A stretch of 11,520 bases of DNA, taken from a virus. Lineage: Duplodnaviria; Heunggongvirae; Uroviricota; Caudoviricetes. The stretch is from IMG/VR virus record IMGVR_UViG_2579778535_000015; one strand, 5' to 3'. The translations under genes and the position numbers were made by a program. Shown here one piece after another: positions 1 through 11,520 of this stretch. The first letter of the stretch is position 1, and every line of letters begins with the position of its first letter. The notes beneath the pieces were generated by a model that saw nothing but the letters and a program-made list of their open reading frames with translations, ran no database searches and was not told the DNA's origin.

Positions 1-600
1 ATGCTTATTGGCTATGTCCGCGTATCAACAAATGACCAGAATACAGAATTGCAGCGTAACGCGCTGGAGTGCGCAGGATGTGAACTGATTTTTGAAGATA
101 AAATCAGCGGAACGAAATCAGCCAGACCGGGATTGAAAAAACTGCTCAGAACGCTATCAGAAGGAGATACGCTGGTTGTCTGGAAGCTGGACAGACTGGG
201 CAGAAGTATGAAACACCTGATCACGCTTATTGAGGAATTGCGGGAAAAAGGTGTTAATTTCCGTAGTCTGACGGACAGCATTGACACATCAACACCCATG
301 GGGCGTTTCTTTTTTCACGTCATGGGAGCTTTAGCCGAAATGGAACGTGAATTAATTGTAGAGCGTACACTGGCCGGGCTGGCAGCAGCACGCGCACAAG
401 GACGCATTGGCGGACGTCGCCCGAAGTTGACAAAAGAACAACACGAGCAAATAGCGAGGCTGATTAAAAACGGTCATGACAGGAAACAACTGGCGATCAT
501 TTACGACATCGGCATATCGACGATTTATCGTTATCACCCTGTAGGCGATATACAGGCTGAAGAAACAATCAGGCAGATTCAGGAAAATGAAAACCGCTAA
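1..600 (+). CDS. Serine-recombinase DNA invertase (Pin/Gin/Hin/Cin family)
   Basis: 199-aa ORF starting at window position 1 (upstream region not visible). Translation carries the family-typical blocks GYVRVSTNDQ (catalytic serine), VVWKLDRLGRS, SLTDSIDTS and GRFFFHVMGALAEMERELIVERT, plus a short C-terminal HTH-like tail. It closely resembles e14 Pin and Salmonella Hin as I recall them. Confidence 0.9.
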   Translation: MLIGYVRVSTNDQNTELQRNALECAGCELIFEDKISGTKSARPGLKKLLRTLSEGDTLVVWKLDRLGRSMKHLITLIEELREKGVNFRSLTDSIDTSTPMGRFFFHVMGALAEMERELIVERTLAGLAAARAQGRIGGRRPKLTKEQHEQIARLIKNGHDRKQLAIIYDIGISTIYRYHPVGDIQAEETIRQIQENENR

Positions 601-626
601 TCTGACCATTAGCGGTTTTGCGTTAA

Positions 627-1115
627 TCAAAACAGCCCTTTAACGGAGCTGGCCGCGCTGTTAAGGGATGATGTGACCTTATCTTTGAAGCCGGACAGCA
701 TATCACTGAACGATGAGGATTGCAGGCGCTCCCGCAAATCCTCATCACAGCGTTCAAGAGTCAGTGAAAATTCTATCTTTTTCGCCTTACCGTAGCGATC
801 AAACTCGGAGCGGGTCGTATTCGTTTCAGTCAGTACATACATGCCGTAAATCTGTCCGACGCCATCAATCAGAGGCCAGGGGCGTCCTGTATACGCCTGC
901 GTGGTCAGCAGCGACAGCGACACTTCGCCACCTGTGATTTCAGGATAAAGCACACCAGAAAGCACGATGCGATCATCGCCTGCCCCGATATACTGCCAGC
1001 TTGCTGAACGGTTAACGCGTTCATTTTTCACATGCCGCCAGCTTTTATTTTGCTGTAACTGCTGATGCGGCAATGTGCGCAGCTCAAAAACAAACATGCC
1101 GTAGATCATCATCAT
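627..1115 (-). CDS. U: P2 gpU-like tail protein
   Basis: Minus-strand ORF (six-frame track 627..1121). The N-terminus MMMIYGMFVFELRTLPHQ is typical of GpU-family proteins. Lies immediately downstream of the tape measure gene, matching P2 T-U order. I place the start at the ATG at 1115 (minus) because a GAGGAG Shine-Dalgarno lies about 8 nt upstream; the start could be 1121 or 1112. Confidence 0.8.
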   Translation of the reverse strand: MMMIYGMFVFELRTLPHQQLQQNKSWRHVKNERVNRSASWQYIGAGDDRIVLSGVLYPEITGGEVSLSLLTTQAYTGRPWPLIDGVGQIYGMYVLTETNTTRSEFDRYGKAKKIEFSLTLERCDEDLRERLQSSSFSDMLSGFKDKVTSSLNSAASSVKGLF

Positions 1116-1127
1116 GGCCATGACTCC

Positions 1128-3971
1128 TCAATCTTTATCGTAAAAACTGCCACGTCCGGCACGGTCGCGTCGTTCCAATTCTGCCCTGACCATTTCACCG
1201 ACCAGTTTCGCCAGTTCGCGGGGATTCTGCGTAACAACGTTATGCAGATGAACATGAATTTCACCGCCAAATCCGGAGACAACAGGCTCCCGGTTACGGG
1301 AAGTTGCAGGAACTGATGCCACTGGCGATCGTATGGCCTCCACCACCGGGCGGGAGCTGGCCGCAACAACAGGGACCAGCGCCGGAGGCAGAGGAGTCGG
1401 GACCACGGGTGTGATGTTGATTGCGGAAGCAGGCTTACTGACCTGCGCAATCTTCCGCTCCTGCCACTCCCCACGAACAGCAAGTGCGCGGGGCAGGTTC
1501 TTAAAGACAATATCGCCGGGGCCAATGCGTTTTTTCGTCTCATCAACCAGCTTACCTGTGTTATCAGCAATTTTGCTGAGTCTGCGTAGCGTACCGGTAT
1601 TGCTGTCTGTGAGCGGTTTGTTGTCTTTGGGTTTATCACCTCCGGTGCCATTGCCATTTTCCACAGGCTTCGGCGGATTGATTTTCGCCAGGTCCCCCTG
1701 AAGCAAGGCAACCTTGTCCTGAAGAATGGCCGCACGCTGTGCGTCTTCGATTTTCTTGCGCGCCCTTTCCGCTTCATCCGGAAGGACGCCAAGTTTTTCA
1801 AGTATCCACGCCAGCGTATCCAGTAGCATTTTTGCAGGCGTCAGAACAAGTTGTAACGCACCGCCAAGAACGTTACCGAATATCTCGCCAGCACTGGTAC
1901 ATTTATCCAGCGTTTCCTTGCTGGACTCCATCGGTGACAGCAGCGATTTAAACCAGTTAAACACCTGGCTGATCCCGCTTCCGATTGCGTCAAAAACAGG
2001 ACCAAACCGTTCAAAGGTTTCGCGCAACGGGGCCAGCCTTTCCATAATCCCGCTGAACACCCCGGCAAAAAATGCCCTGATGGGATCCCAGTATTTCCAG
2101 ATAAGAACGGCAGCTCCGGCAAGCGCAGCCACGATAAGACCAACCGGACTGAACAGCGCCCCGATAGCACCTCCCAGCAAAGAAACGGAACCCGTCACCA
2201 TTCCCCATAGTGCTGGCAGGACCCTGACAGCATTCATTGATCCGGTCAGGAGAGAAAAACCGAGACGTAACGTAGCCAGCTTCCCGTGAAGCACCCCAAT
2301 AACCAGAGACAACGAACCAACCGTTGCTGCTGTCGCCAGCAGTGCACCTCCCGCTATCAGTAACTGGCGCGTCAGTGCCGGATGGGCCTGCGCCAGTGCC
2401 GTCACTTTTGAGACCACCCGCGTGAGCCACTGCGTGACAGAACGCAGCGGACCGTCAATCAGATCTGCAATGCGGATGCGCAACCCTTCCCATGCACTGC
2501 CGAGTGATTTCAGATCGCCGTCAAGGTTGTTGGCCATAACCTTTGCTGTGCGTTCAGCCTCACCGCGCGCGCCTTCAAGTTCTTTTCTCAGTTTGGGTAA
2601 GGAACCGTCACCCGCTGCATCAACGAGCGCCATAAACGATGTGAAAGCCTCTTCTCCGGCAATGTCCTTAAAGAACGATACCCGGTCAACTTCCCCGTAT
2701 TTGCGGGTGGCTTTATAAAGGTCGGCCAGCACATCCTCCATCGGGCGCATTTTGCCCCCGGCATCCGAGACGGACACGCCCAGCTCTTTCAGAGCTTCTG
2801 CCGCCGCCTTTGGCGGTGATGCCAGACGAGCCAGGCTGGCACGCATTGCCGTCCCGGCATCACTCCCTCTGATGCCCATATTCGCCAGCACGCCAGCCAT
2901 CGCTGCGGCCTGCTCCAGCGATATTCCCAGCTTACCCGCCACCGGACCTGCATATTTCATGGTTTCACCCAGTGCGCGAAGGTCAGTGTTGGTACGGGTA
3001 AACGCTGCGGTAAGTGTGTCACCGACCCGGTCCATCTGGTCAGCAGAAAGGCCGAACTGCGTCAGGATATTTGAGCCAATATCCGCCGTCTCGCCGAGAT
3101 CGATACCGCCAGCCGTTGCCATGCTTAGCACGCCGGGAAGCGCAGCCTGAATGGCCTGCGGAGTAAAACCAGCCATTGCAAGAAATGCCTGTCCACTGGC
3201 GGCATCGCCTGCGGTGAACTGCGTTTCAGAGCCAAGTTTTAACGCCTGCTCACGCAGCGCCTTAAACTGCGGGCTGTTCTGGTCAATTCGCGTCAGCGCC
3301 TGAACGCGGGACATCTCTTTCCCGAACCCGATCGCGGGCTGCAAAAAACGCCCGGCAGCATAGCCGCCCGCAGCTGCTGCACCAATTGCCAGCGCACCAC
3401 CTGTTTTCAGTTTTCCCGCTGTTTCCTGCGCGCGCGAATACCGCTCACGCGCCCGCGTTACACGCGCAAGCGCCTGCCGTTCGCGTTCAAGCTGGTTGTT
3501 GTACTGTTCGGTGCGTCTGATGGCCTGCTGGATGGTGTTATCGCTGCCTGTCAGGGAAATGCCGTGGCGTTTCAGCTCTCCGCCAAGTTCCCGCATTTTC
3601 TGAATTTCCCGTGTGCGCGATTCATTCAGGCGTTCAAGCCGGGTGCTTAACTGCTGCATCAGCTTTTGTTGTTTTTCGCTGAGCACTGTACCCGTGCGTT
3701 GTAACTGATTAAGGGCGTTAAGCTGGCGTCGTGCTTTCAATATGCCAGCATCCGCTTTACTGACAGCGTCACGGGCGCGCTCAAATGAACGCGCCTGACG
3801 CTCGAGATTTTTGATCGCCCCCTGAGTTCGCTGGATGGAGTCACCAAACTGCCCCATCAGGCGGCGGGCGTTTTCGGCAGGCCGGGTCAGCCTGTCAACG
3901 GCGCTGAAAGCGACCCGGATATCAAGAGTCTTCATTGTCTGCATTCCCGCTGCGAAGTGCCGCCCGCTCAC
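1128..3971 (-). CDS. T: Phage tail tape measure protein (P2 gpT-like)
   Basis: 947-aa minus-strand ORF between the E/E' chaperone gene and U. Long helical N-terminal half rich in Q/R/E/L/A, hydrophobic Gly/Ala-rich central segments, C-terminal region. The 5' end overlaps the E' frameshift ORF as in P2. Exact start uncertain: GTG at 3971, or in-frame ATG at 3944 or 3935. Confidence 0.85.
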   Translation of the reverse strand: MSGRHFAAGMQTMKTLDIRVAFSAVDRLTRPAENARRLMGQFGDSIQRTQGAIKNLERQARSFERARDAVSKADAGILKARRQLNALNQLQRTGTVLSEKQQKLMQQLSTRLERLNESRTREIQKMRELGGELKRHGISLTGSDNTIQQAIRRTEQYNNQLERERQALARVTRARERYSRAQETAGKLKTGGALAIGAAAAGGYAAGRFLQPAIGFGKEMSRVQALTRIDQNSPQFKALREQALKLGSETQFTAGDAASGQAFLAMAGFTPQAIQAALPGVLSMATAGGIDLGETADIGSNILTQFGLSADQMDRVGDTLTAAFTRTNTDLRALGETMKYAGPVAGKLGISLEQAAAMAGVLANMGIRGSDAGTAMRASLARLASPPKAAAEALKELGVSVSDAGGKMRPMEDVLADLYKATRKYGEVDRVSFFKDIAGEEAFTSFMALVDAAGDGSLPKLRKELEGARGEAERTAKVMANNLDGDLKSLGSAWEGLRIRIADLIDGPLRSVTQWLTRVVSKVTALAQAHPALTRQLLIAGGALLATAATVGSLSLVIGVLHGKLATLRLGFSLLTGSMNAVRVLPALWGMVTGSVSLLGGAIGALFSPVGLIVAALAGAAVLIWKYWDPIRAFFAGVFSGIMERLAPLRETFERFGPVFDAIGSGISQVFNWFKSLLSPMESSKETLDKCTSAGEIFGNVLGGALQLVLTPAKMLLDTLAWILEKLGVLPDEAERARKKIEDAQRAAILQDKVALLQGDLAKINPPKPVENGNGTGGDKPKDNKPLTDSNTGTLRRLSKIADNTGKLVDETKKRIGPGDIVFKNLPRALAVRGEWQERKIAQVSKPASAINITPVVPTPLPPALVPVVAASSRPVVEAIRSPVASVPATSRNREPVVSGFGGEIHVHLHNVVTQNPRELAKLVGEMVRAELERRDRAGRGSFYDKD

Positions 3972-4140
3972 GCCAGCTAACCACTTCGCCGGGCGTCATC
4001 ATGAAGATTTCGGCGGGCGACCAGTTAAAAATGGCGGCAATATCCGCCACAAAGTCTTCTATGTGCTCAAAGCACACAACCGTGATCAGGCTTCCGTCGC
4101 CTGTTCGTTCTTCCCGCCAGAGTCCGCACCGCTCAAAAAA
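3922..4140 (-). CDS. E': gpE' extension, expressed as E+E' fusion by -1 programmed frameshift
   Basis: The -1 frame ORF (track 3922..4158, minus) is entered exactly at the slippery heptamer inside gpE. After the slip the reading continues ...VNFF-ERCGLWREERTGDG... to a stop at 3922, overlapping the start of T. This is the conserved P2-family E/E' arrangement. Confidence 0.6.
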   Translation of the reverse strand, partial: FFERCGLWREERTGDGSLITVVCFEHIEDFVADIAAIFNWSPAEIFMMTPGEVVSWRERAALRSGNADNEDS

Positions 4141-4451
4141 TTTACGGCAACCACACATAACTGAATAAAGTCACGGGATGCCATTTTTTTGATCGTCACT
4201 TCATCCAGTCGCGGTGATGTCACGCGTGACAGCAGCGTAAACATGGATTCCGCTTTCAGATTCAGCACATCAGACAGCGACAAATCTCGCAGAGATCCAG
4301 CCTGCTCAATAGCCCCGGTGATCTCCACATACGTGATTTTTTCGCTGCCTCGCTCAATGGGTTGGGTAAGTTTTACGCCACGCTCACTGGTTTCTTTCAC
4401 AGTGTCAGCAACTACCGTGTTTTCGGTATCGATGTTTTTCGTCTCTTTCAT
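4086..4451 (-). CDS. E: Tail assembly chaperone (P2 gpE-like)
   Basis: 121-aa minus-strand ORF between FII and T. AAGGAG Shine-Dalgarno 7 nt upstream of the ATG at 4451. Contains the internal slippery site that feeds E'. Position and size fit the P2 gpE family. Confidence 0.8.
   Translation of the reverse strand: MKETKNIDTENTVVADTVKETSERGVKLTQPIERGSEKITYVEITGAIEQAGSLRDLSLSDVLNLKAESMFTLLSRVTSPRLDEVTIKKMASRDFIQLCVVAVNFLSGADSGGKNEQATEA
4134..4140 (-). other. -1 programmed ribosomal frameshift slippery heptamer T_TTT_TTG (gpE/gpE')
   Basis: Plus strand 4134-4140 is CAAAAAA, so the minus strand reads TTTTTTG. In the gpE zero frame the codons are AAT TTT TTG (N-F-L), giving the X_XXY_YYZ phasing. 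The -1 frame from this point is open for 71 codons. Confidence 0.65.
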
Positions 4452-4505
4452 CAGGAAACTCCTTTCAGTCAGAGGCGACGCACTGCGCCGCCTGCATATT
4501 ACTTA

Positions 4506-5018
4506 TCAGCCAAGCCCGAGCGCGGAACGGATGCGATCGGGCACAATGTCCTTGCCGTCCTTCCGGTAAATGAAGTTCAGCAGGTCAATCTCCCACAACG
4601 GGCGATCGTTAACACTCAGCTTGTAGTAGGTGTTTTTAATGGCGTAAGTGTGTGATGTGGCTTCGCCCTGTTTGGCTTCCCCCATATCAATTTCCGTCAC
4701 ACGTCCGCGCATTTCGACTTCATACAGGTCGCTTTCTGCATCGGTGTAGTATTCACCCGCAAAACGCAGCAGCGTGCCGTCAATCGTGCCGCCATACTTA
4801 AGGAACAGCTCACGAACTGCGCCCCCCATGACAAAGCTCGCATCAAGCGCGGAGTCATCCAGGCCGAGATCAATACTTACCGCTCCCATCATGCCACCAC
4901 CCCGGTAGCTGTCGGTTTTGCGCGTCAGCTTAGGCAAAGTGACGGACGTCACCTTACCCACTTCGTTTTCACCATCCACAAACAGCGTAAAAAAGCGAAG
5001 ATGTTTTGGCACAGCCAT
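4506..5018 (-). CDS. FII: Tail tube protein (P2 gpFII-like)
   Basis: 170-aa minus-strand ORF. Its start codon overlaps the FI stop (minus strand reads TGATG) and is preceded by GGGAGGTG. Size and position directly downstream of the sheath gene match P2 FII. Confidence 0.88.
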   Translation of the reverse strand: MAVPKHLRFFTLFVDGENEVGKVTSVTLPKLTRKTDSYRGGGMMGAVSIDLGLDDSALDASFVMGGAVRELFLKYGGTIDGTLLRFAGEYYTDAESDLYEVEMRGRVTEIDMGEAKQGEATSHTYAIKNTYYKLSVNDRPLWEIDLLNFIYRKDGKDIVPDRIRSALGLG

Positions 5019-6202
5019 CAGGCACCTCCCAGCACCGCAAATGCGGGTTCAAAGTATTCATCAGTAAACGTCTGGTAAAGCTCCATGTCTTCCAGTGGCG
5101 GAACGGGCGTATATTTGTAGCGAATACGCACACGCCCCTGACGTAAATCCGTGGTGCTGTTATCCACCACGTCATACCAGCACGACGCGCCAATCAGTTT
5201 CCCGGCAGTAACCAGTGAATCCAGTTTTGCCCTGATGGCACTGATAACATCCTTCACGTTCGCAGGCGTCAGTGGACTGTCGATGGTTTCAAACTGCGCT
5301 TCCGCAATTGAATCAGCCAGCACCTGTGCGGTTCGGGTATACACCTCAAAAATGTAGGCGTTCGTTTCCGGTGTGCGGTTGCCCCAGAAGCGGAACCCGT
5401 TGCGACGAATAATGGTCGTGATTTCTTTGTTGTTGAGGCTGTTGGCATCACTGTCTTCGGCCTGCAACGACCAGAACACATGCCTCGACATCCCCAGCAC
5501 ATTTTTAACCGGAACGTTGGACAGCGATTTGTGCCAGCCCTGCTCATGGTCAATGTACGCACGAAGGCCGCACGCATAAGCAGGCGCGGGGAACGTTTCG
5601 TTTTCGCCACTTTTCGGGTTGTAGGCGATGAAGTCCGGCCATAAGAGCATTACTTCACGTTCGTTGAATTTCTGGCGGTAGGTAATCGCTTCAGCCATCG
5701 TGTTACAGCCGTGACATGAGGCATACACAAACGCGCGAAGTTTACCCGCAATCACGCACAGGGATTTTGTCACCGCCTCCGTGTCCAGCTCCGGCGCGGC
5801 CAGAATACGCGGACGGTATCCGATGCTTTCATCCTGCTCTGCAACAAGCAGCGCATACATCCCCGTATAGCTGCCGTCATCCTCAGAACCACCGATAACC
5901 AGTTGATCCTGCGTCTTTTCGTCTTCTTCTTTGTGTTCAGCCACGCGAACGACGATCACCTTTGTGCTCACCTGGTCTGCGATGGCCTTAAGCGCACGAT
6001 AAAGCGTCCCCGTTGTTCCGCATTTTCCCAGCACGTCATTGACGCGGGTCAGCAGTGTGGGCTTGTTCAGCGGGAACAGCTTCGCGTCCGCATCATCCGC
6101 CGTTGCCACGATACCGATAACGCTGGAATCAACATCGTTAATCGCTGTTACCAGGTCGGTATTTTCCGTAACACGGGCACCATGAAAACGAGTTTCACTC
6201 AT
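5018..6202 (-). CDS. FI: Contractile tail sheath protein (P2 gpFI-like)
   Basis: 394-aa minus-strand ORF. Recalled similarity to P2 FI throughout, for example LNKPTLLTRV, WPDF, HEQGWHKSLSNV, IRRNGFRFWGNRT, YTPVPPLE. AAGGGG Shine-Dalgarno about 9 nt upstream of the ATG at 6202. Confidence 0.9.
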   Translation of the reverse strand: MSETRFHGARVTENTDLVTAINDVDSSVIGIVATADDADAKLFPLNKPTLLTRVNDVLGKCGTTGTLYRALKAIADQVSTKVIVVRVAEHKEEDEKTQDQLVIGGSEDDGSYTGMYALLVAEQDESIGYRPRILAAPELDTEAVTKSLCVIAGKLRAFVYASCHGCNTMAEAITYRQKFNEREVMLLWPDFIAYNPKSGENETFPAPAYACGLRAYIDHEQGWHKSLSNVPVKNVLGMSRHVFWSLQAEDSDANSLNNKEITTIIRRNGFRFWGNRTPETNAYIFEVYTRTAQVLADSIAEAQFETIDSPLTPANVKDVISAIRAKLDSLVTAGKLIGASCWYDVVDNSTTDLRQGRVRIRYKYTPVPPLEDMELYQTFTDEYFEPAFAVLGGA

Positions 6203-6359
6203 AGCTTCAGCCCCTTGTATCCGTTAAATGATTCGGCAACAATCATCACCCACCACGCGCGTAATCTCACCCCTGCGCCGTTCTCCCGCCACGGCGACAA
6301 CAAAAAGCAGTAACCCCCTCCGCACGCACATGCGACCATGCCACACAGGGAGGGAGCAG

Positions 6360-7469
6360 ATGACCGACACCACCATGCAATTGCTCAGTCAGAGCACAGA
6401 CCCCGTGAAAATGCCGGATTTTGATATTCTTGCGGAGGGTAAAACGCTGTCCGGCGTGGCAGAGCGCCTGATGAGCCTGTCACTGACCGACAACCGGGGA
6501 TTTGAAGCAGACCAGCTCACCATCACGCTGGATGATGCTGATGGTCAGTTGCAGTTGCCGCCACGGGGCGCTCGCCTGACGGTTCTCATTGGCTGGAAAG
6601 GCGAACCGCTGACAGAAAAAGGCACTTACATTGTTGATGAAATTGCTCATGAAGGACCGCCCGACAGACTGACCATTTCAGCCAGAAGCGCAGATTTTCG
6701 GGATGAATTTAACGTCAAGCGCGAAGTGTCCTGGCATGATGTGACCGTTGAGCGAGTGGTATCCGCCATCGCTCATCGGTACGGTCTGAAACCGCAAATC
6801 AGCGAAATGCTGATGGATATCGAAATCGACCACGCCGACCAGACCGAAGAAAGTGACATGTCCTTCCTTACGCGCATGGCGGAAATGCTGGGCGCAATCA
6901 CCACGGTAAAAAGCGGTAATCTGTTATTCATCATGCCCGGCGGTGGCGTGAACGCACAGGGCCAGCCGTTGCCATCGTTCGCCATCACACGCAGCAGCGG
7001 CGATCGCCATCAGTTCCGCATTGCGGACCGCGAAGCGTATACGGGGGTACGCGCCTACTGGCTTGATCTTAATTACGGGAAAAAGAAAAAAGTCAGCGTG
7101 AAACGCCGCAAACCGCCAAAACCCAAAAAGGAGAAAAGCAGCAGCCGTGAAGGTGATTATATGGAAGGCGCGGAAGGCAATGTGTTTGTGTTACGCAAGA
7201 CCTATCAGAACGAACAGGCAGCAAGACGCGCAGCGGCGGCAAAGTGGCAGCAACTACAACGCGGAGCCGCATCATTCTCCATCACGCTGGCGCGTGGACG
7301 TGCAGAACTCTACCCCGAAATGCATGGTACGGTAACAGGATTTAAAAGCGAGATTGATAATCAGGACTGGATCATTGCAAAAGCCGAGCACACCATTGAT
7401 AACAGTGGCTTTACCACGCAGCTTGAGCTTGAGGCAAAAATCCCGGAATGGATAGCGGAAACAGAGTGA
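6360..7469 (+). CDS. D: P2 gpD-like tail protein (late control gene D family)
   Basis: Plus-strand ORF (track 6228..7469). I place the start at the ATG at 6360 (MTDTTMQLLSQS...), which follows a GGGAGGGAG Shine-Dalgarno. About 370 aa, immediately upstream of ogr as in P2. The family assignment rests on position, size and recalled sequence character, not on a search. Confidence 0.78.
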   Translation: MTDTTMQLLSQSTDPVKMPDFDILAEGKTLSGVAERLMSLSLTDNRGFEADQLTITLDDADGQLQLPPRGARLTVLIGWKGEPLTEKGTYIVDEIAHEGPPDRLTISARSADFRDEFNVKREVSWHDVTVERVVSAIAHRYGLKPQISEMLMDIEIDHADQTEESDMSFLTRMAEMLGAITTVKSGNLLFIMPGGGVNAQGQPLPSFAITRSSGDRHQFRIADREAYTGVRAYWLDLNYGKKKKVSVKRRKPPKPKKEKSSSREGDYMEGAEGNVFVLRKTYQNEQAARRAAAAKWQQLQRGAASFSITLARGRAELYPEMHGTVTGFKSEIDNQDWIIAKAEHTIDNSGFTTQLELEAKIPEWIAETE

Positions 7470-7511
7470 GGAACTTAGAATAGCGACAGCACCACGTTAA
7501 GGGAGGTCGCT

Positions 7512-7772
7512 ATGTTCCGTTGTCCGCTTTGTGGCGCATCTGCCCGTATCCGCACCAGTCGTCCGGAAAATGATTCAAACACCGTGCGGCAAAAGTATTA
7601 CCAGTGTAACAACCTGGAATGCGGCGTATGCTTCTCAACACTGGAAGCTTTCCATAAATTCACATCGAAACACGCCTCCGGCGTTCACTCATCAGAAGGT
7701 ATCCCGTGGCATGAGCTGCCAGCTTCACACAGGGGAAACAATCAGATGAGTTTGCCTTTATCTCAGAATTAA
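7512..7772 (+). CDS. ogr: Ogr/Delta-family zinc-finger late transcription activator
   Basis: 86-aa ORF starting MFRCPLCGASARIRTSR, with a second Cys pair CNNLEC (C-x2-C ... C-x4-C), matching recalled P2 Ogr (MFHCPLC...CQNVNC). GGGAGG Shine-Dalgarno 5 nt upstream. Directly downstream of D. Confidence 0.85.
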   Translation: MFRCPLCGASARIRTSRPENDSNTVRQKYYQCNNLECGVCFSTLEAFHKFTSKHASGVHSSEGIPWHELPASHRGNNQMSLPLSQN

Positions 7773-8170
7773 CAGGCAGAATTGCCGGAGTAACAAAAAA
7801 AGCGATACACCCATTTACCCGGCAGTACCACTCCCCCGCCCCATAGCTGGCAGTGAGGCGGGATGTTTTGCCTACCCGCCAGCAGGCACCATCGTGGAAA
7901 TATCCAACATTGAAGGACGCCCGGATAAGCCTGTTATCAGGCAAATCTTACCCATCGGTCATAACCTGCCTGATGTAAAGCCCGGCGAACAATTGCAACA
8001 ACAGCGTGCAGAAGTGTTTCAGCATGTCACGACTGACGGAAGCTGGCGCAGAAAAACCGACCAGCAAATCCAAGAAGAAAAGCGCGTAAAACGATCACTG
8101 CTGATGTGGCGTTTCTTTATACAAGCTGCTATTTGCGATATGCTGAACACATCAACCTGTGGAGTGCATT

Positions 8171-8797
8171 ATGAAACAAAAATCAAAGTCTGCTGCCATT
8201 GCTGCTATTGCTACAGCTCTGACAGCATCACTGGCTCCGGTGCCAGCTAAAAGCACGATACTACCAACAACAGTTATTGAATCCGTGACACACGCCAGAG
8301 TGGTTTCAATGCTTACATTTGAGCATCATGATGGTCAGGTGTTTCTGCCTCTTGAAGAAGCTATTGAATATATCAACGGGCTGAATGACAACATGCGTGC
8401 CGCGCTCAATGCAGTCATTGAAGAACGACAGAACAGAGGCAAGGGAGCTCTGTTTGCTGACAAAACCGCAAAAATCATAAAAATATGCGAAGAGTCACTT
8501 AAGCAGCACAGCCGTGTTAAAGAGGCTGTCAAAATTGTAATGGATCCGGATAACCTGGCAAAAATGTATCCGGATAGCATGGAGCAAAGAATCGCCTATC
8601 GCAATAAACTGGTTCGTTTTGGTCGGGCAATTGCGCAGGGAGAGTTTATCGCTCGTGATGCCATCAACGCCATCAAACGAAGCACCGCACCAGACAAAAC
8701 GACCAGCCTAGGCAATACGCTGTCTGACGGAAATGTGAAAGCAATGATTATTGCCGAGCATAAAAACATGGGACTCCCGGCACCGGAGTTTTCCTGA
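8171..8797 (+). CDS. Hypothetical protein, upstream partner of the YafO-like gene; possible N-terminal signal peptide
   Basis: ORF in track as 8159..8797. I prefer the ATG at 8171 (MKQKSKSAAIAAIATALTASLAPVPAKS...), which has GGAG 6 nt upstream. About 208 aa, predicted mostly helical, no family recognised by eye. Its stop overlaps the next gene's ATG (TGATG at 8795-8799). Confidence 0.55.
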   Translation: MKQKSKSAAIAAIATALTASLAPVPAKSTILPTTVIESVTHARVVSMLTFEHHDGQVFLPLEEAIEYINGLNDNMRAALNAVIEERQNRGKGALFADKTAKIIKICEESLKQHSRVKEAVKIVMDPDNLAKMYPDSMEQRIAYRNKLVRFGRAIAQGEFIARDAINAIKRSTAPDKTTSLGNTLSDGNVKAMIIAEHKNMGLPAPEFS

Positions 8798-9177
8798 TGG
8801 CAAGCAAAGTAAGCATTCATAAAGATGTTGAATACCAGGACATTGCAAAAGTTTACGGAAAGGCTCTGGAAAACTGGTTAAATACCGGTGTTCTCCCTGA
8901 CAGATTCGGCAATGAAGGGCAGTGGGAAGATAACGCAAGATTATGTGGTTCGTTTGTATATAAATTACACATAAGACTACCGTCAGAACCACCATGGAAG
9001 AAAAGCAAAGCCCAAATAGACAGAACTTCAAATATCTATCTGGTTTATACAAGGCACTGGATGGATTATGACAATATACAAATCATCAGCATCATGGCCC
9101 CAGATGCTCACGAAAAAGCCAAAACTTCTTTCATGGCTGAGCTGGAAAGACGGGCAGAAGAATTCCAGAACTCATAA
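8797..9177 (+). CDS. YafO-like toxin-domain protein (type II TA toxin family, ribosome-dependent mRNA interferase)
   Basis: 126-aa ORF. Recalled E. coli YafO shares GVLPDxFG, the HIxL block, the stretch RTSNIYLVYTRHWMDYDNIQIISIMAPDAHEKA (YafO: RTNDEAHLVYCQGAFDEQAWLLIAILKPEPHKLA) and a C-terminal MAE..R..F. Start is translationally coupled to the upstream ORF. Followed by a strong intrinsic terminator. Confidence 0.62.
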   Translation: MASKVSIHKDVEYQDIAKVYGKALENWLNTGVLPDRFGNEGQWEDNARLCGSFVYKLHIRLPSEPPWKKSKAQIDRTSNIYLVYTRHWMDYDNIQIISIMAPDAHEKAKTSFMAELERRAEEFQNS

Positions 9178-9200
9178 ATTGCCTGATTTTCTCCCAGAAA

Positions 9201-9232
9201 CCCGCAGCGTAAAAACTGCGGGTTTTCTTTTT
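9201..9232 (+). terminator. Rho-independent terminator after the YafO-like gene
   Basis: CCCGCAG (9201-9207), loop CGTAAAAA, CTGCGGG (9216-9222), followed by TTTTCTTTTT (9223-9232). Confidence 0.75.
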
Positions 9233-9256
9233 GGTGCCCTCACAAATGAGGGCACC
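9233..9256. repeat. Perfect 10-bp inverted repeat GGTGCCCTCA-CAAA-TGAGGGCACC
   Basis: Directly abuts the terminator T-tract. No U-tract follows on the plus strand, so it is probably not a second terminator. Possibly a protein-binding palindrome or RNA structure. Confidence 0.4.
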
Positions 9257-9279
9257 ATACATAAGCAATAGGCATAACA

Positions 9280-9317
9280 GATCGATGCAATAAATCCGAT
9301 CGATAAAAACGATCGAT
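9280..9317. promoter_or_regulatory. Cluster of three GATCGAT direct repeats (three Dam GATC sites) upstream of the com-like gene
   Basis: GATCGAT at 9280-9286, 9298-9304 and 9311-9317, in a 38-bp AT-rich stretch about 45-80 bp upstream of the com start. Resembles the three-GATC regulatory region upstream of the Mu mom promoter. Confidence 0.45.
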
Positions 9318-9361
9318 TTGTTATCATATCGGCAGCAGTAACCACACAAGAGGTGCCGCAA

Positions 9362-9559
9362 ATGACGCAAAATGTACGATGCAAAAATTGCAACAAACTA
9401 CTTGCCCGCGCCTCATTTCACTACATTGAAATAAAATGTCCGCGCTGCAAAACACTTAACCAGATAACGAGAGCCATCGAGCACCCCACACACATGAGGA
9501 GTTATGACCGTGGGGATCGCAATCCAGCACCAACCAGCACATACACCGGAACACACTAA
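9362..9559 (+). CDS. com: Com-like zinc-finger translational activator (phage Mu Com family)
   Basis: Track ORF 9353..9559 begins at GTG. I prefer the ATG at 9362 (MTQNVRCKNCNKLLARASFHYIEIKCPRCKTLNQI...), with AAGAGGTG Shine-Dalgarno 6 nt upstream. Two CxxC pairs (CKNC, CPRC) and a recalled Mu Com-like N-terminal region. The 3' end overlaps the start of the methyltransferase gene by 56 nt. Confidence 0.75.
   Translation: MTQNVRCKNCNKLLARASFHYIEIKCPRCKTLNQITRAIEHPTHMRSYDRGDRNPAPTSTYTGTH
9484..9515 (+). promoter_or_regulatory. Candidate mRNA stem-loop enclosing the methyltransferase Shine-Dalgarno and start codon
   Basis: CCCCAC (9484-9489) can pair with GTGGGG (9510-9515). The 20-nt loop contains GAGGAG (9496-9501) and the ATG at 9504. 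By analogy with Mu, Com binding could open this structure. Stability not computed. Confidence 0.35.
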
Positions 9560-10295
9560 GGTTTATCAGACTGACAATGCCACGCTCTGTCGTGGGAATG
9601 CGCTGGAAATATTGCCGCTGATTGAGCCAGAAAGCATTGATGCCTTAATCACTGACCCACCTTACAGTTCGGGTGCGACACACAAGGCCGGACGCACCAA
9701 CCAGGGCAGCCATGCAAAATATCTGAACGGCGAGAACCTTCACCGCTTTGATGGGTTCGCGGGTGAAAACATGGACGCCCGTTCGTGGGCTTACTGGACA
9801 CAATTATGGATGGCACAGGCACACCGCGCAGTCAGGCCGGGCGGTTATGCCCTGGTATTTACTGACTGGCGACAACTACCAGCTTTAACCGATGCGTTTC
9901 AGGCCAGTGGCTTTACATGGCGCGGCATCATTGCGTGGAACAAAGGGAGGGGGTCACGAACACCACATACCGGGTATTTCCGGCATCAGTGCGAATACAT
10001 CGTCTGGGGCAGCAAAGGCCATTTAGATAAATCGCCTTCGGGACCGTTCGACGGCTGCATGACGTTCCCGGTTATCCCGTCAAAGAAAATGCACCCAACC
10101 GGAAAACCAGAAGAACTAATGGCGGAACTGGTCAGGACTGTGAATAGTGGCGGAACAGTCCTTGATCCTTTTATGGGGTCAGGGACAACGGGTGTGGCTG
10201 CACTGAAAGCAGGACGCAAATTTATTGGTATAGAAACCAGTGATCATTATTTTGATGTAGCAACACAACGGCTCAAAACGGCGATCGAACCATAA
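9504..10295 (+). CDS. Beta-class amino DNA methyltransferase (N6-adenine or N4-cytosine), probable orphan phage methyltransferase
   Basis: 263-aa ORF with motif IV (ITDPPYSSG) near the N-terminus and motif I (FMGSGTTGVAALKAGRKFIGIE) near the C-terminus, the order that defines beta-class amino-MTases. No adjacent endonuclease gene. Start could be the ATG at 9504 or the GTG at 9510. Confidence 0.85.
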   Translation: MTVGIAIQHQPAHTPEHTKVYQTDNATLCRGNALEILPLIEPESIDALITDPPYSSGATHKAGRTNQGSHAKYLNGENLHRFDGFAGENMDARSWAYWTQLWMAQAHRAVRPGGYALVFTDWRQLPALTDAFQASGFTWRGIIAWNKGRGSRTPHTGYFRHQCEYIVWGSKGHLDKSPSGPFDGCMTFPVIPSKKMHPTGKPEELMAELVRTVNSGGTVLDPFMGSGTTGVAALKAGRKFIGIETSDHYFDVATQRLKTAIEP

Positions 10296-10299
10296 GACA

Positions 10300-10321
10300 A
10301 AGCCCGCAATGTTGCGGGCTT
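10300..10321. terminator. Palindromic hairpin after the methyltransferase gene (weak or bidirectional terminator candidate)
   Basis: AAGCCCGCAA-TG-TTGCGGGCTT is a perfect 10-bp inverted repeat, 5 bp after the MTase stop. The downstream T-tract on the plus strand is poor (TT then ACTCTACC). Confidence 0.45.
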
Positions 10322-10524
10322 ACTCTACCTCTCGAAAATGTGGTCACTGCGTGGACATACGCTGATACAAATCCTTTTATATCAATAAATTAAATCTTTG
10401 TTTTTTTCATCAACAAGGATTTTCACGTTTGTGTTACCTGTATGAGACGAGAGTTAACCGGACAAGTGTGCCATAATCTCGCGGCCAGGCATACTTGCGA
10501 AGATTTCAGGTATAAGGATACGTA

Positions 10525-11520
10525 ATGATACAACCTATTTCCGGCCCTCCTCCTGGGCAACCACCAGGTCAGGGAGATAATCTGCCGTCTGGCACGGGCA
10601 ATCAGCCTTTATCCAGTCAGCAACGTACTTCGCTGGAAAGCTTAATGACGAAAGTGACCTCACTGACGCAACAGCAAAGAGCAGAACTGTGGGCGGGTAT
10701 CAGGCACGATATTGGTCTGTCGGGAGATTCACCGCTGCTTTCGCGTCACTTCCCTGCCGCTGAGCATAATCTGGCGCAACGTCTGCTGGCCGCGCAAAAA
10801 AGCCATTCTGCCCGCCAGCTTTTAGCGCAATTAGGGGAGTATTTACGTCTGGGGAATAATCGTCAGGCGGTCACGGATTATATCCGTCATAACTTTGGTC
10901 AGACGCCGCTGAATCAGCTCTCACCGGAGCAATTAAAAACCATTCTCACCCTGTTGCAGGAAGGGAAGATGGTTATTCCGCAACCACAGCAGCGCGAGGC
11001 GACCGACCGTCCTTTATTACCGGCGGAGCACAATGCGCTAAAACAGCTGGTGACCAAACTTGCGGCGGCAACGGGGGAACCCAGCAAACAGATCTGGCAA
11101 TCGATGCTGGAACTTTCCGGGGTGAAAGATGGCGAGTTAATTCCAGCGAAACTGTTTAACCATCTGGTGACCTGGCTACAGGCGCGTCAGACGCTAAGCC
11201 AGCAAAATACGCCGACGCTGGAATCACTACAGATGACGCTAAAACAACCTTTAGATGCCAGTGAACTGGCGGCGTTATCGGCATATATCCAGCAAAAATA
11301 TGGTCTTTCTGCGCAATCATCGCTTTCTTCTGCCCAGGCCGAGGATATTCTTAATCAGCTTTATCAACGGCGGGTTAAAGGGATTGATCCGCGTGTTATG
11401 CAACCGCTGCTTAATCCTTTTCCACCGATGATGGACACGTTGCAAAATATGGCAACGCGTCCCGCGCTGTGGATACTGTTAGTCGCGATTATCCTGATGC
11501 TGGTCTGGCTGGTTCGTTAA
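10525..11520 (+). CDS. flk: Flagellar regulator Flk (tail-anchored inner-membrane protein)
   Basis: 331-aa ORF with Pro/Gly/Gln-rich N-terminus (MIQPISGPPPGQPPGQG) and a C-terminal hydrophobic anchor (ALWILLVAIILMLVWLVR). Length and sequence match my recollection of enterobacterial Flk. AAGGAT Shine-Dalgarno upstream of the ATG. Confidence 0.8.
   Translation: MIQPISGPPPGQPPGQGDNLPSGTGNQPLSSQQRTSLESLMTKVTSLTQQQRAELWAGIRHDIGLSGDSPLLSRHFPAAEHNLAQRLLAAQKSHSARQLLAQLGEYLRLGNNRQAVTDYIRHNFGQTPLNQLSPEQLKTILTLLQEGKMVIPQPQQREATDRPLLPAEHNALKQLVTKLAAATGEPSKQIWQSMLELSGVKDGELIPAKLFNHLVTWLQARQTLSQQNTPTLESLQMTLKQPLDASELAALSAYIQQKYGLSAQSSLSSAQAEDILNQLYQRRVKGIDPRVMQPLLNPFPPMMDTLQNMATRPALWILLVAIILMLVWLVR

Follow-up and report, generated by a model that had tools for sequence, protein, structure and literature searches.

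Inverted order of the tail genes is the normal, fixed arrangement in a large group of P2-family prophages

The window, by which we mean the whole 11,520-nt stretch of DNA analyzed here, carries a contractile-tail late gene cluster of the P2-like (Peduoviridae) type, in which homologs of FI, FII, E/E', T, U, D, and the Ogr family are all present. It opens on the plus strand with a serine DNA invertase of the Pin/Gin/Hin family (1-600; Pfam Resolvase, 6e-52, and HTH_7, 1e-12), which is a neighbor of the inverted tail block described below and lies outside the block itself. The minus strand then encodes the tail protein gpU (627-1121; Phage_P2_GpU, 5.5e-39; 99% identity to P88 gp44), the tape measure protein gpT (1128-3971; PhageMin_Tail, 6e-58), the E' reading frame (3922-4158; Phage_P2_GpE, 2.6e-12), the tail chaperone gpE (4086-4451; 97% identity to P88 gp47), the tail tube protein gpFII (4506-5018; Phage_tube, 7.5e-47), and the tail sheath protein gpFI (5018-6202; Phage_sheath_1, Gp18_domIII_N, and Phage_sheath_1C). 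The plus strand resumes with gpD, the baseplate hub or late control D protein (6360-7469; Phage_GPD, 3.5e-17), and an Ogr-family zinc-finger late activator (7512-7772; Ogr_Delta, 5e-14), after which the remainder (7773-11520) contains a YafO-type toxin, a methylase, and other genes. A Pfam search with gpE returned no match, and E was assigned via P88 gp47 and the GpE domain of E', the other cluster genes being assigned via Pfam. Near its 3' end, E carries the P2-type slippery heptamer T_TTT_TTG (4134-4140, minus strand), where a -1 frameshift leads into the E' frame. The start of gpT is uncertain, lying either at the GTG at 3971 or near 3935, at the equivalent of the start annotated in P88. 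An Rfam scan of the whole window found no RNA family.

The D protein of the window is 98.6% identical to that of P88 across 369/369 residues. Its reading frame is open from 6228, and the preferred start, 6360, is most likely the D start, judging by a Shine-Dalgarno sequence (GGGAGGGAG) at 6348-6356 and by agreement with the P88 annotation. About 30 nt before this start is a conserved ATG, which shares the D frame in the window and in Kp4848-1. It was considered as an alternative start and rejected, since in Kp4871-3 it is not in the D frame, and its TG is better explained as part of a predicted extended -10 element. In the spacer between FI and D, annotation pipelines frequently put the D start in the wrong place or predict a spurious ORF.

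As the initial annotation had it, with accurate coordinates, U, T, E/E', FII, and FI lie on the minus strand (627-6202) and D and ogr on the plus strand (6360-7772), whereas in P2 all of these genes are on one strand; the canonical order FI-FII-E-T-U-D-ogr on a single strand is thus not what the window displays. An invertase does stand at the left junction, its gene ending 26 bp from U. Between these two convergent genes, a terminator-like match and RNA folding identify a hairpin with a 12-bp stem (590-619; folding energy -16.9 kcal/mol for the plus-strand RNA and -15.6 kcal/mol for the minus-strand RNA), which is probably a two-way intrinsic terminator and marks the left junction. At the other end, the claim that flipping exactly 627-6202 would restore the P2 state needs correction, since the predicted FI promoter and its Ogr box (6282-6299) fall outside this interval. 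To judge from the sequence, promoter and box clearly moved along with the block.

The window is, on sequence evidence, part of a P88-like (Xuanwuvirus, Peduoviridae) P2-family prophage of Escherichia coli, the genus being assigned by identity and synteny with P88 and P884B11 only, as the ICTV genus criterion is whole-genome identity and the window covers 11.5 kb. P88-like phages match positions 2-7807 with 94-96% nucleotide identity, several records (PhiSM, P884B11) in a single colinear match. Among 5426 complete E. coli genomes, 1107 are colinear with at least 80% of positions 1-7800, and of the 1390 that match the native FI/D junction, 1355 have it intact. A synthetic chimeric query representing the canonical junction from U to D was found in none of 1423 matching E. 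coli genomes. P88 and PhiSM are inducible or active phages (PMC5285337, PMC6456863), and the inverted arrangement is therefore functional.

This layout extends well beyond the P88-like phages. It is also found in SEN4, Kp4871-3, and Kp4848-1, which represent three further genera, and phages of Senquatrovirus, Reginaelenavirus, and Reipivirus have it without the invertase. In a survey of genome loci, which sampled a single genome per species and kept the 80 best loci, the block is inverted in 61/61 loci with a D identity of at least 61%, which come from many Enterobacterales genera, and all 14 complete loci with a D identity of 54% or less have the canonical P2 order. The canonical order also holds in outgroups from Burkholderia, Mannheimia, Ralstonia, and Pseudomonas. 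Neighbor-joining trees of D, FI, U, and FII, which were quick and unrooted, each contain one branch dividing inverted from canonical loci. The inverted order is, consequently, the normal and fixed arrangement of a large group of P2-family prophages, comprising the P88-like phages and their relatives. The initial annotation had offered a fixed rearrangement, possibly invertase-mediated, or an assembly artifact, unless close relatives should prove to share the orientation stably; since the layout is common to P88, to four Peduoviridae genera, and to 61/61 loci, the orientation is stable across the family, and neither an invertase-mediated or recent rearrangement nor an assembly artifact is supported.

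How did the orientation arise? The nearby Pin/Gin-type invertase might have flipped the 5.6-kb block at secondary crossover sites, recently or reversibly, in favor of which its gene ends 26 bp from the left junction and serine invertases occasionally act at quasi-sites. However, the alternative orientation is seen in 0/1423 E. coli genomes, and the invertase adjoins U in only 7 of the 61 inverted loci, being absent from this place in the other 54 and in SEN4. Moreover, three canonical loci (L007, L070, and L087) have the same invertase directly upstream of FI, on the same strand and in the same post-fiber position. Crossover sites are likewise missing from both junctions. Across 1-8000, inverted repeats amount to short pairs at chance level, none of them linking 601-626 with 6203-6359, and a search for a gix/hix-like crossover site, as the initial annotation had proposed, gave four matches to an AAACC-NN-GGTTT-like core in the window, compared with 5.3 matches expected by chance, and none at either junction. 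We regard a flip by the invertase as very improbable and, for practical purposes, refuted. The usual substrate of the enzyme is the invertible tail-fiber segment upstream, which is located outside the window. In P88, inverted repeats of 65 nt flank this segment (23822-23886 and 26862-26926).

A mis-joined or mis-oriented contig, the other explanation offered initially, has nothing in its favor beyond the departure from P2 gene order, and it is hardly conceivable when identical junctions recur in more than 1300 complete genomes, each assembled independently, as well as in phage genomes sequenced separately and in 61 loci of other genera. A further alternative is a replacement of modules. Rather than being inverted in situ, an FI-U cassette from a different phage could have been inserted the opposite way by recombination, which would suit the mosaic nature of P2-like genomes and breakpoints that match module borders, with the fiber/invertase module on the left and D on the right. 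Against this, the block and D have diverged from P2 to a similar extent (47% identity for FI, 42% for FII, and 46.5% for U vs. 49% for D), the FI, FII, U, and D trees agree on the split between inverted and canonical loci, and the geometry of the PF promoter and its box is the same as in canonical relatives. We therefore find such a replacement improbable, and prefer a single inversion of the block in place.

Since the block has the opposite orientation to that in P2, FI-U and D have to be expressed divergently from 6203-6359, as the initial annotation recognized, and our comparative analysis finds conserved promoter elements pointing both ways. The spacer contains an Ogr/B/Delta-type activator dyad at 6282-6299 (TCT-N12-ACA on the plus strand, TGT-N12-AGA in the FI sense), which has one mismatch to TGT-N12-ACA. 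Among nine inverted and canonical phages inspected, eight have a TGT-N12-ACA box with zero or one mismatch 73-97 nt upstream of the FI ATG, the exception being Burkholderia AP3, in which only a TGT-N13-ACA variant is found upstream of FI. The columns of the box are 95-100% conserved in 41 nonredundant spacers of the inverted clade. On the FI side, the predicted PF -10 hexamer of the window is GATGAT (6242-6247, minus strand; predicted start at about 6235), and an nAnnAT hexamer lies 35-40 nt from the box in 40/41 spacers; within a small canonical comparison set of 18 loci, each of the three defining -10 positions of PF is kept in 15-16. On the D side, a predicted extended -10, TGcGACCAT (6331-6339, plus strand), would specify a start at about 6346. 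Here, nAnnAT is found 35-40 nt from the box in 31/41 spacers and shifted by 1 nt in 4 more, every other offset occurring in at most 4/41, and the TGn element has its G at position 33 in 35/41 and a complete TG at positions 32-33 in 22/41. No element of this type was detected on the mirror side of the 18 canonical PF regions. In the window, the center of the dyad is 55.5 nt from each of the two predicted starts.

Transcription from P2-type Ogr-dependent late promoters, to which PF and the proposed D promoter would belong, depends on Ogr and the α subunit of RNA polymerase. Such promoters are recognized by a -10 at a conserved distance and a poor -35, and this is what is seen on both predicted sides. 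Since the 41 spacers are related by descent, part of their conservation could be inherited, but most columns neighboring the conserved elements are unconserved, which counts against mere inheritance. From this geometry, we infer that one activator site drives both the PF and the D promoter, as at the P/O spacer of P2-like phages. D might instead have a promoter of its own, either Ogr-independent or served by a separate activator site, in which case the D-side motif would have another role, for example, as a 5' leader element or as the site of another regulator. The D-side hexamers of the window are indeed weak (the -10, GACCAT, matches TATAAT at 3/6 positions, and the -35-like TAACCC is poor), and a conserved GC-rich CGCGCG tract lies ahead of the D-side -10. 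Yet, the exact mirror spacing of 35-40 nt persists in 31-35 of the 41 spacers, diverse as these are, even though the distances to the start codons vary, the D side has the TGn of an extended -10, and the P/O spacers are of the same design. Moreover, no second Ogr box was found in the FI/D spacer, and a sigma-70 promoter scan returned no constitutive promoter in 6203-6359, an absence that agrees with activator-dependent promoters and is no positive evidence for them. An independent D promoter is, in our view, unlikely, and a dyad shared by PF and D is the reading that we retain.

We consider it very likely that a single ancestral inversion was fixed, that the FI/D spacer acts as a late control region with a shared dyad, and that the invertase was not involved. 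In the ancestor of a large enterobacterial P2-like sublineage, the segment running from the PF promoter through FI, FII, E/E', and T to U would have been inverted once, with one breakpoint just downstream of the tail-fiber (or invertase) module and the other at the tight U/D boundary. Once fixed, the inversion would have divided the FETUD operon of P2 in two, with FI-U remaining under PF and D-ogr set apart, leaving the 157-bp FI/D spacer as a putative back-to-back late control region. Its dyad would lie about 55 nt upstream of the leftward PF and about 55 nt upstream of a rightward, mirror-image D promoter, so placed that one bound activator could turn on both arms late in infection. The adjacent invertase would serve the upstream tail-fiber cassette. 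That a single ancient inversion defines a large sublineage, and that the U/D operon break was accommodated by a second one-dyad promoter pair, for PF and D, seems to us rather likely. Part of this reading is that the inverted sublineage of Peduoviridae, with Xuanwuvirus, Senquatrovirus, Reginaelenavirus, Reipivirus, and prophages across many Enterobacterales genera as its members, would have gone unremarked. The gene order of the window is itself annotated in P88. In papers on P88, PhiSM, SEN4, and the Serratia PP4 prophage, none of the terms looked for that would denote an inversion or rearrangement of the tail block occurs, and papers on a Burkholderia P2-like phage and a Xenorhabdus tailocin are silent on tail-block inversion.

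The inverted order is standard for a very common type of prophage, which about a quarter of complete E. coli genomes carry. The orientation of the tail block is uninformative on assembly quality or on what the invertase does. As a synteny marker, the direction of FI-U relative to D is simple, and it separates the large enterobacterial P2-like lineage from P2-, 186-, and Fels-2-type phages, with no exception in our sample. As a candidate for a second bidirectional Ogr-dependent promoter region, the FI/D spacer helps in understanding how an operon may be split with coregulation kept. If a single inversion and a shared dyad are indeed the explanation, this would be a clean natural case of an operon split rescued by reuse of a symmetric activator site.

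The closest known systems are P88 and the other Xuanwuvirus phages (PhiSM, P884B11, 500465-2, and Chuche), which have the identical order of invertase on the plus strand, U-T-E'-E-FII-FI on the minus strand, and D-ogr on the plus strand. P88 differs after ogr, where it has hok/gef instead of the genes found at 7773-11520 of the window, and its invertase shares only 86% protein identity with that of the window. The FETUD operon of P2 encodes the same seven proteins, with 32-49% identity, and has the same T_TTT_TTG frameshift site in E/E'. Its PF has a TGT-N12-ACA box some 80-97 nt upstream of FI, with a -10 hexamer 35-40 nt beyond the box. In P2, however, the genes share a single strand and D directly follows U within one operon, whereas in the window everything from PF and FI through U is inverted, and D, set apart from U, needs its own start region and promoter.

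With its back-to-back region of about 150-170 bp, the PP/PO late pair of P2-like phages resembles the FI/D spacer. The P/O spacers of P88 (L001, 14216-14233) and P2 (L089, 2949-2966) each contain a single TGT-N12-ACA-like dyad, with putative -10-like hexamers 35-41 nt from it on both sides, and one 18-bp box was assigned by the authors of the Smp131 study to both PP' and PO' (PMC3931495). The PP/PO pair governs the genes for packaging and the head and occurs throughout the family, whereas the proposed FI/D pair is found only in the inverted clade; by analogy, the latter would be a second, derived copy of the PP/PO design. The invertible segments served by Gin, Cin, Pin, and Hin (Mu G, P1 C, and e14 P) involve serine invertases of the family encoded at 1-600, and relatives have, as in those systems, an invertible tail-fiber cassette with flanking inverted repeats immediately upstream. 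The 5.6-kb tail block differs from such segments in that crossover sites are lacking at its ends, it never occurs the other way round, and it is inverted also in phages without an invertase.

As in the initial annotation, whose genes, strands and coordinates proved right, the window opens with a serine DNA invertase gene (1-600, +), followed on the minus strand by the genes for gpU (627-1121), the tape measure gpT (1128-3971), gpE (4086-4451) with the E' frame (3922-4158), the tail tube FII (4506-5018) and the tail sheath FI (5018-6202), and then on the plus strand by those for gpD (6360-7469) and an Ogr-family zinc-finger activator (7512-7772). With a P2-type slippery heptamer, T_TTT_TTG, leading into the E' frame at 4134-4140 (-), the FI-U block looks functionally intact. 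The gpT start is ambiguous, since the longest ORF begins at GTG 3971 and the equivalent of the P88 annotation at ~3935, overlapping the end of E'. A hairpin with a 12-bp stem (590-619) fills the 26-bp left junction between the convergent invertase and U genes and looks like a terminator serving both.

Megablast against phage genomes returned matches of 94-96% identity over 2-7807, colinear and for several records in a single piece, including Escherichia phage P88, Citrobacter phage PhiSM and Xuanwuvirus P884B11. The P88 record has an identical layout, with the invertase (+), gp44-gp49 (U, T, E', E, FII and FI) (-) and D (+). Since P88, like P2, carries head, baseplate and fibre genes on the plus strand, the FI-U block is the part that is flipped against the remainder of the genome. 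P88 is inducible and plaque-forming and PhiSM shows spontaneous activity (PMC5285337, PMC6456863), so the inverted arrangement is consistent with a functional phage. Annotated public records of phages and bacteria already contain it, and it is ordinary for this lineage; the searched papers on phages of this arrangement make no mention of a tail-block inversion or rearrangement.

The FI-U block is fixed in this orientation, being neither invertible nor mis-assembled. At least 80% of 1-7800 was found in one colinear place in 1107 of 5426 complete E. coli genomes, and many of these matches begin at 617-625, which means that the invertase is absent while U...FI (-)/D (+) is kept. Of the 1390 E. 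coli genomes that match the native FI/D junction (5800-6800), 1355 have it intact; most of the others break off within D, mainly in O157:H7 strains. When a synthetic canonical junction (the 3' half of U joined to the 5' part of D, as in the one-strand P2 order FI-FII-E-T-U-D-ogr) was used as query, its two halves were found together in 0 of 1423 matching E. coli genomes. These counts refute the assembly artefact that the initial annotation had offered as one explanation. Its other proposal, a rearrangement by the invertase at secondary sites, would call for inverted gix/hix-like crossover sites at both junctions; no inverted repeats link 601-626 with 6203-6359, and neither junction has an AAACC-NN-GGTTT-type core, which matches 4 times across the window where 5.3 matches are expected. 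Both proposals fall with the stable family-wide gene orientation, which had been named from the outset as telling against them.

This stability extends well beyond E. coli. Among the next-closest phages, obtained by tblastn with D and oriented by mapping the window proteins onto the fetched loci, the arrangement is inverted in Salmonella phage SEN4 (Senquatrovirus; D identity 64%) and in Klebsiella phages Kp4871-3 (Reginaelenavirus; 74%) and Kp4848-1 (Reipivirus; 73%), and canonical in P2 (49%), Gegevirus ST437-OXA245phi4.1 (53%), Klebsiella phage Kp4845-2 (53%) and Burkholderia phage AP3 (48%). A genome scan with the D alignment as query, taking one genome per bacterial species, gave the same partition: among the best 80 loci, the 61 with D identity of 61% or more are all inverted and the 14 complete ones at 54% or less all canonical, five further loci being truncated. 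Inverted loci occur in many Enterobacterales genera, among them Salmonella, Citrobacter, Enterobacter, Klebsiella, Raoultella, Kosakonia, Serratia, Erwinia, Pantoea, Pectobacterium, Brenneria, Edwardsiella, Hafnia, Yersinia, Providencia, Morganella, Xenorhabdus and Photorhabdus; phages further removed, from Mannheimia, Ralstonia and Pseudomonas, have the canonical order. In unrooted neighbour-joining trees, one branch parts inverted from canonical loci, both for D, which lies outside the block, and for each of FI, FII and U within it. The simplest reading of these sequences is one old in-situ inversion, passed down through a whole sub-lineage. That the block was instead imported as a foreign cassette is very unlikely, since its proteins and D are about equally distant from their P2 counterparts (42-49% identity).

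Two groups of records deserve separate mention. In the O157:H7 copies (H48-H51, H114-H120) only 621-6705 is covered, with an IS30 transposase under the two-piece match, and in the junction search the match stops at ~6627, inside D; D appears disrupted or truncated there, and with D apparently broken the prophage is presumably defective. A contig labelled as Gram-positive (NZ_JBQPOM010000071.1, 'Vagococcus sp. WN89Y'), whose D and FI share 97-98% protein identity with this prophage region, is probably contamination or a mislabelled assembly.

As for the invertase, it adjoins U in just 7 of the 61 inverted loci among the best 80 and was detected next to U in none of the three inverted phages SEN4, Kp4871-3 and Kp4848-1; in SEN4 the annotated neighbours of U are tail-fibre genes. 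Three canonical loci (L007, L070 and L087) carry an invertase at the corresponding place after the fibre genes, where it immediately precedes FI. In P88, a 3-kb tail-fibre cassette lies between 65-nt inverted repeats just upstream of the invertase gene, the usual host-range switch of the Mu G/P1 C type. The invertase is near the junction because it ends the fibre module, and the old breakpoint was at this same end.

The breakpoints differ from those first proposed. Of nine inverted and canonical phages inspected, eight carry TGT-N12-ACA, the recognised late-promoter element of P2 (PMC3931495), with 0-1 mismatch at 73-97 nt upstream of the FI start codon; the ninth, Burkholderia AP3, has only a TGT-N13-ACA variant at the corresponding position. 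The inverted segment therefore took the late promoter of FI (PF) along. In the window this box lies at 6282-6299, outside 627-6202, and flipping exactly that interval, as the initial annotation suggested, does not give the P2 state. Since U and D abut or overlap in canonical phages, the right breakpoint must have been at the tight U/D boundary, consistent with the first 12-18 residues of D being unalignable between sub-groups. Two Providencia loci (L046, L057) have a variant perfect dyad, TCTC-N10-GAGA, in place of TGT-N12-ACA, which may co-vary with the local Ogr homologue.

The annotated D start is inconsistent across genomes: PGAP often calls a shortened 'contractile injection system protein, VgrG/Pvc8 family' (e.g. 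E. coli KOr024, L094 11817-12661) and often places a small hypothetical ORF within or close to the FI/D spacer. The short D-ogr gap (7470-7511) is a cargo insertion spot in relatives, with an hxsABCD (His-Xaa-Ser radical-SAM) cluster in E. coli 96_1414P (L090 8459-11856) and ParA, PIN-domain, YecA or DUF2971 genes listed under two-piece matches in other genomes. The sole sigma-70-like promoter match within 500-8000, GTAACA-18-GATAAT (7332-7361, +), falls within the 3' end of D some 150 nt ahead of ogr and is a possible early promoter of ogr itself. The region past ogr (7773-11520) is unlike P88 and KOr024; in it a 212-aa ORF of no known function (8159-8797) and, immediately after it, a YafO-family toxin gene (8797-9177) lie in a stretch of 43-46% GC, with an N6/N4 DNA methylase gene (9504-10295) next and then an ORF that runs off the window and shows a weak GemA-like match (10525-11520).

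With no gene upstream of D on its strand, a promoter is needed within the 157-bp FI/D spacer (6203-6359). We stacked 66 inverted-clade spacers ungapped with the box as anchor; 41 remained after reduction to <90% identity. Most columns are unconserved and the box itself is conserved, as are A, A and T at positions 36, 39 and 40 from it, on the FI side (98% each) and on the D side (93%, 78% and 88%). Scanning for nAnnAT placed the hexamer at offset 35 in 40/41 spacers on the FI side (one base further in 1; best other offset, 6/41) and in 31/41 on the D side (one base further in 4; best other offset, 3/41). Ahead of the D-side hexamer stands G at position 33 in 35/41 spacers and TG in 22/41, amounting to a predicted extended -10, and T-T occupies positions 12-13, the place expected for a -35. 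In 18 canonical PF regions taken as a control, the FI-side hexamer is present (15-16/18 at each defining position), with no mirror-side element. In the window, whose own D-side hexamers are weak, the predicted PF -10 is GATGAT (6242-6247, -; predicted start ~6235) and the predicted D promoter TGcGACCAT (6331-6339, +; predicted start ~6346), ahead of a Shine-Dalgarno sequence (6348-6356, +) and the D ATG (6360, +).

These conserved predicted elements on both sides of the box support the initial suggestion that FI-U and D are expressed divergently from 6203-6359. The box centre is 55.5 nt from each of the two predicted starts, which is P2 late-promoter geometry. A single Ogr-bound dyad would then activate both arms, PF and D, and we consider it fairly probable that one dyad drives both; this candidate bidirectional Ogr promoter is a minor by-product of the analysis that lends itself to testing. 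The P/O (terminase/scaffold) spacer, home of the divergent late promoters PP and PO, provides a precedent within the same genomes for such a shared box: in P88 (L001 14152-14305) and P2 (L089 2880-3052) it has one TGT-N12-ACA-like box, flanked on either side by a -10-like hexamer at a distance of 35-41 nt, like the FI/D spacer. Likewise, in Smp131 a single 18-bp box has been assigned to both PP' and PO' (PMC3931495).
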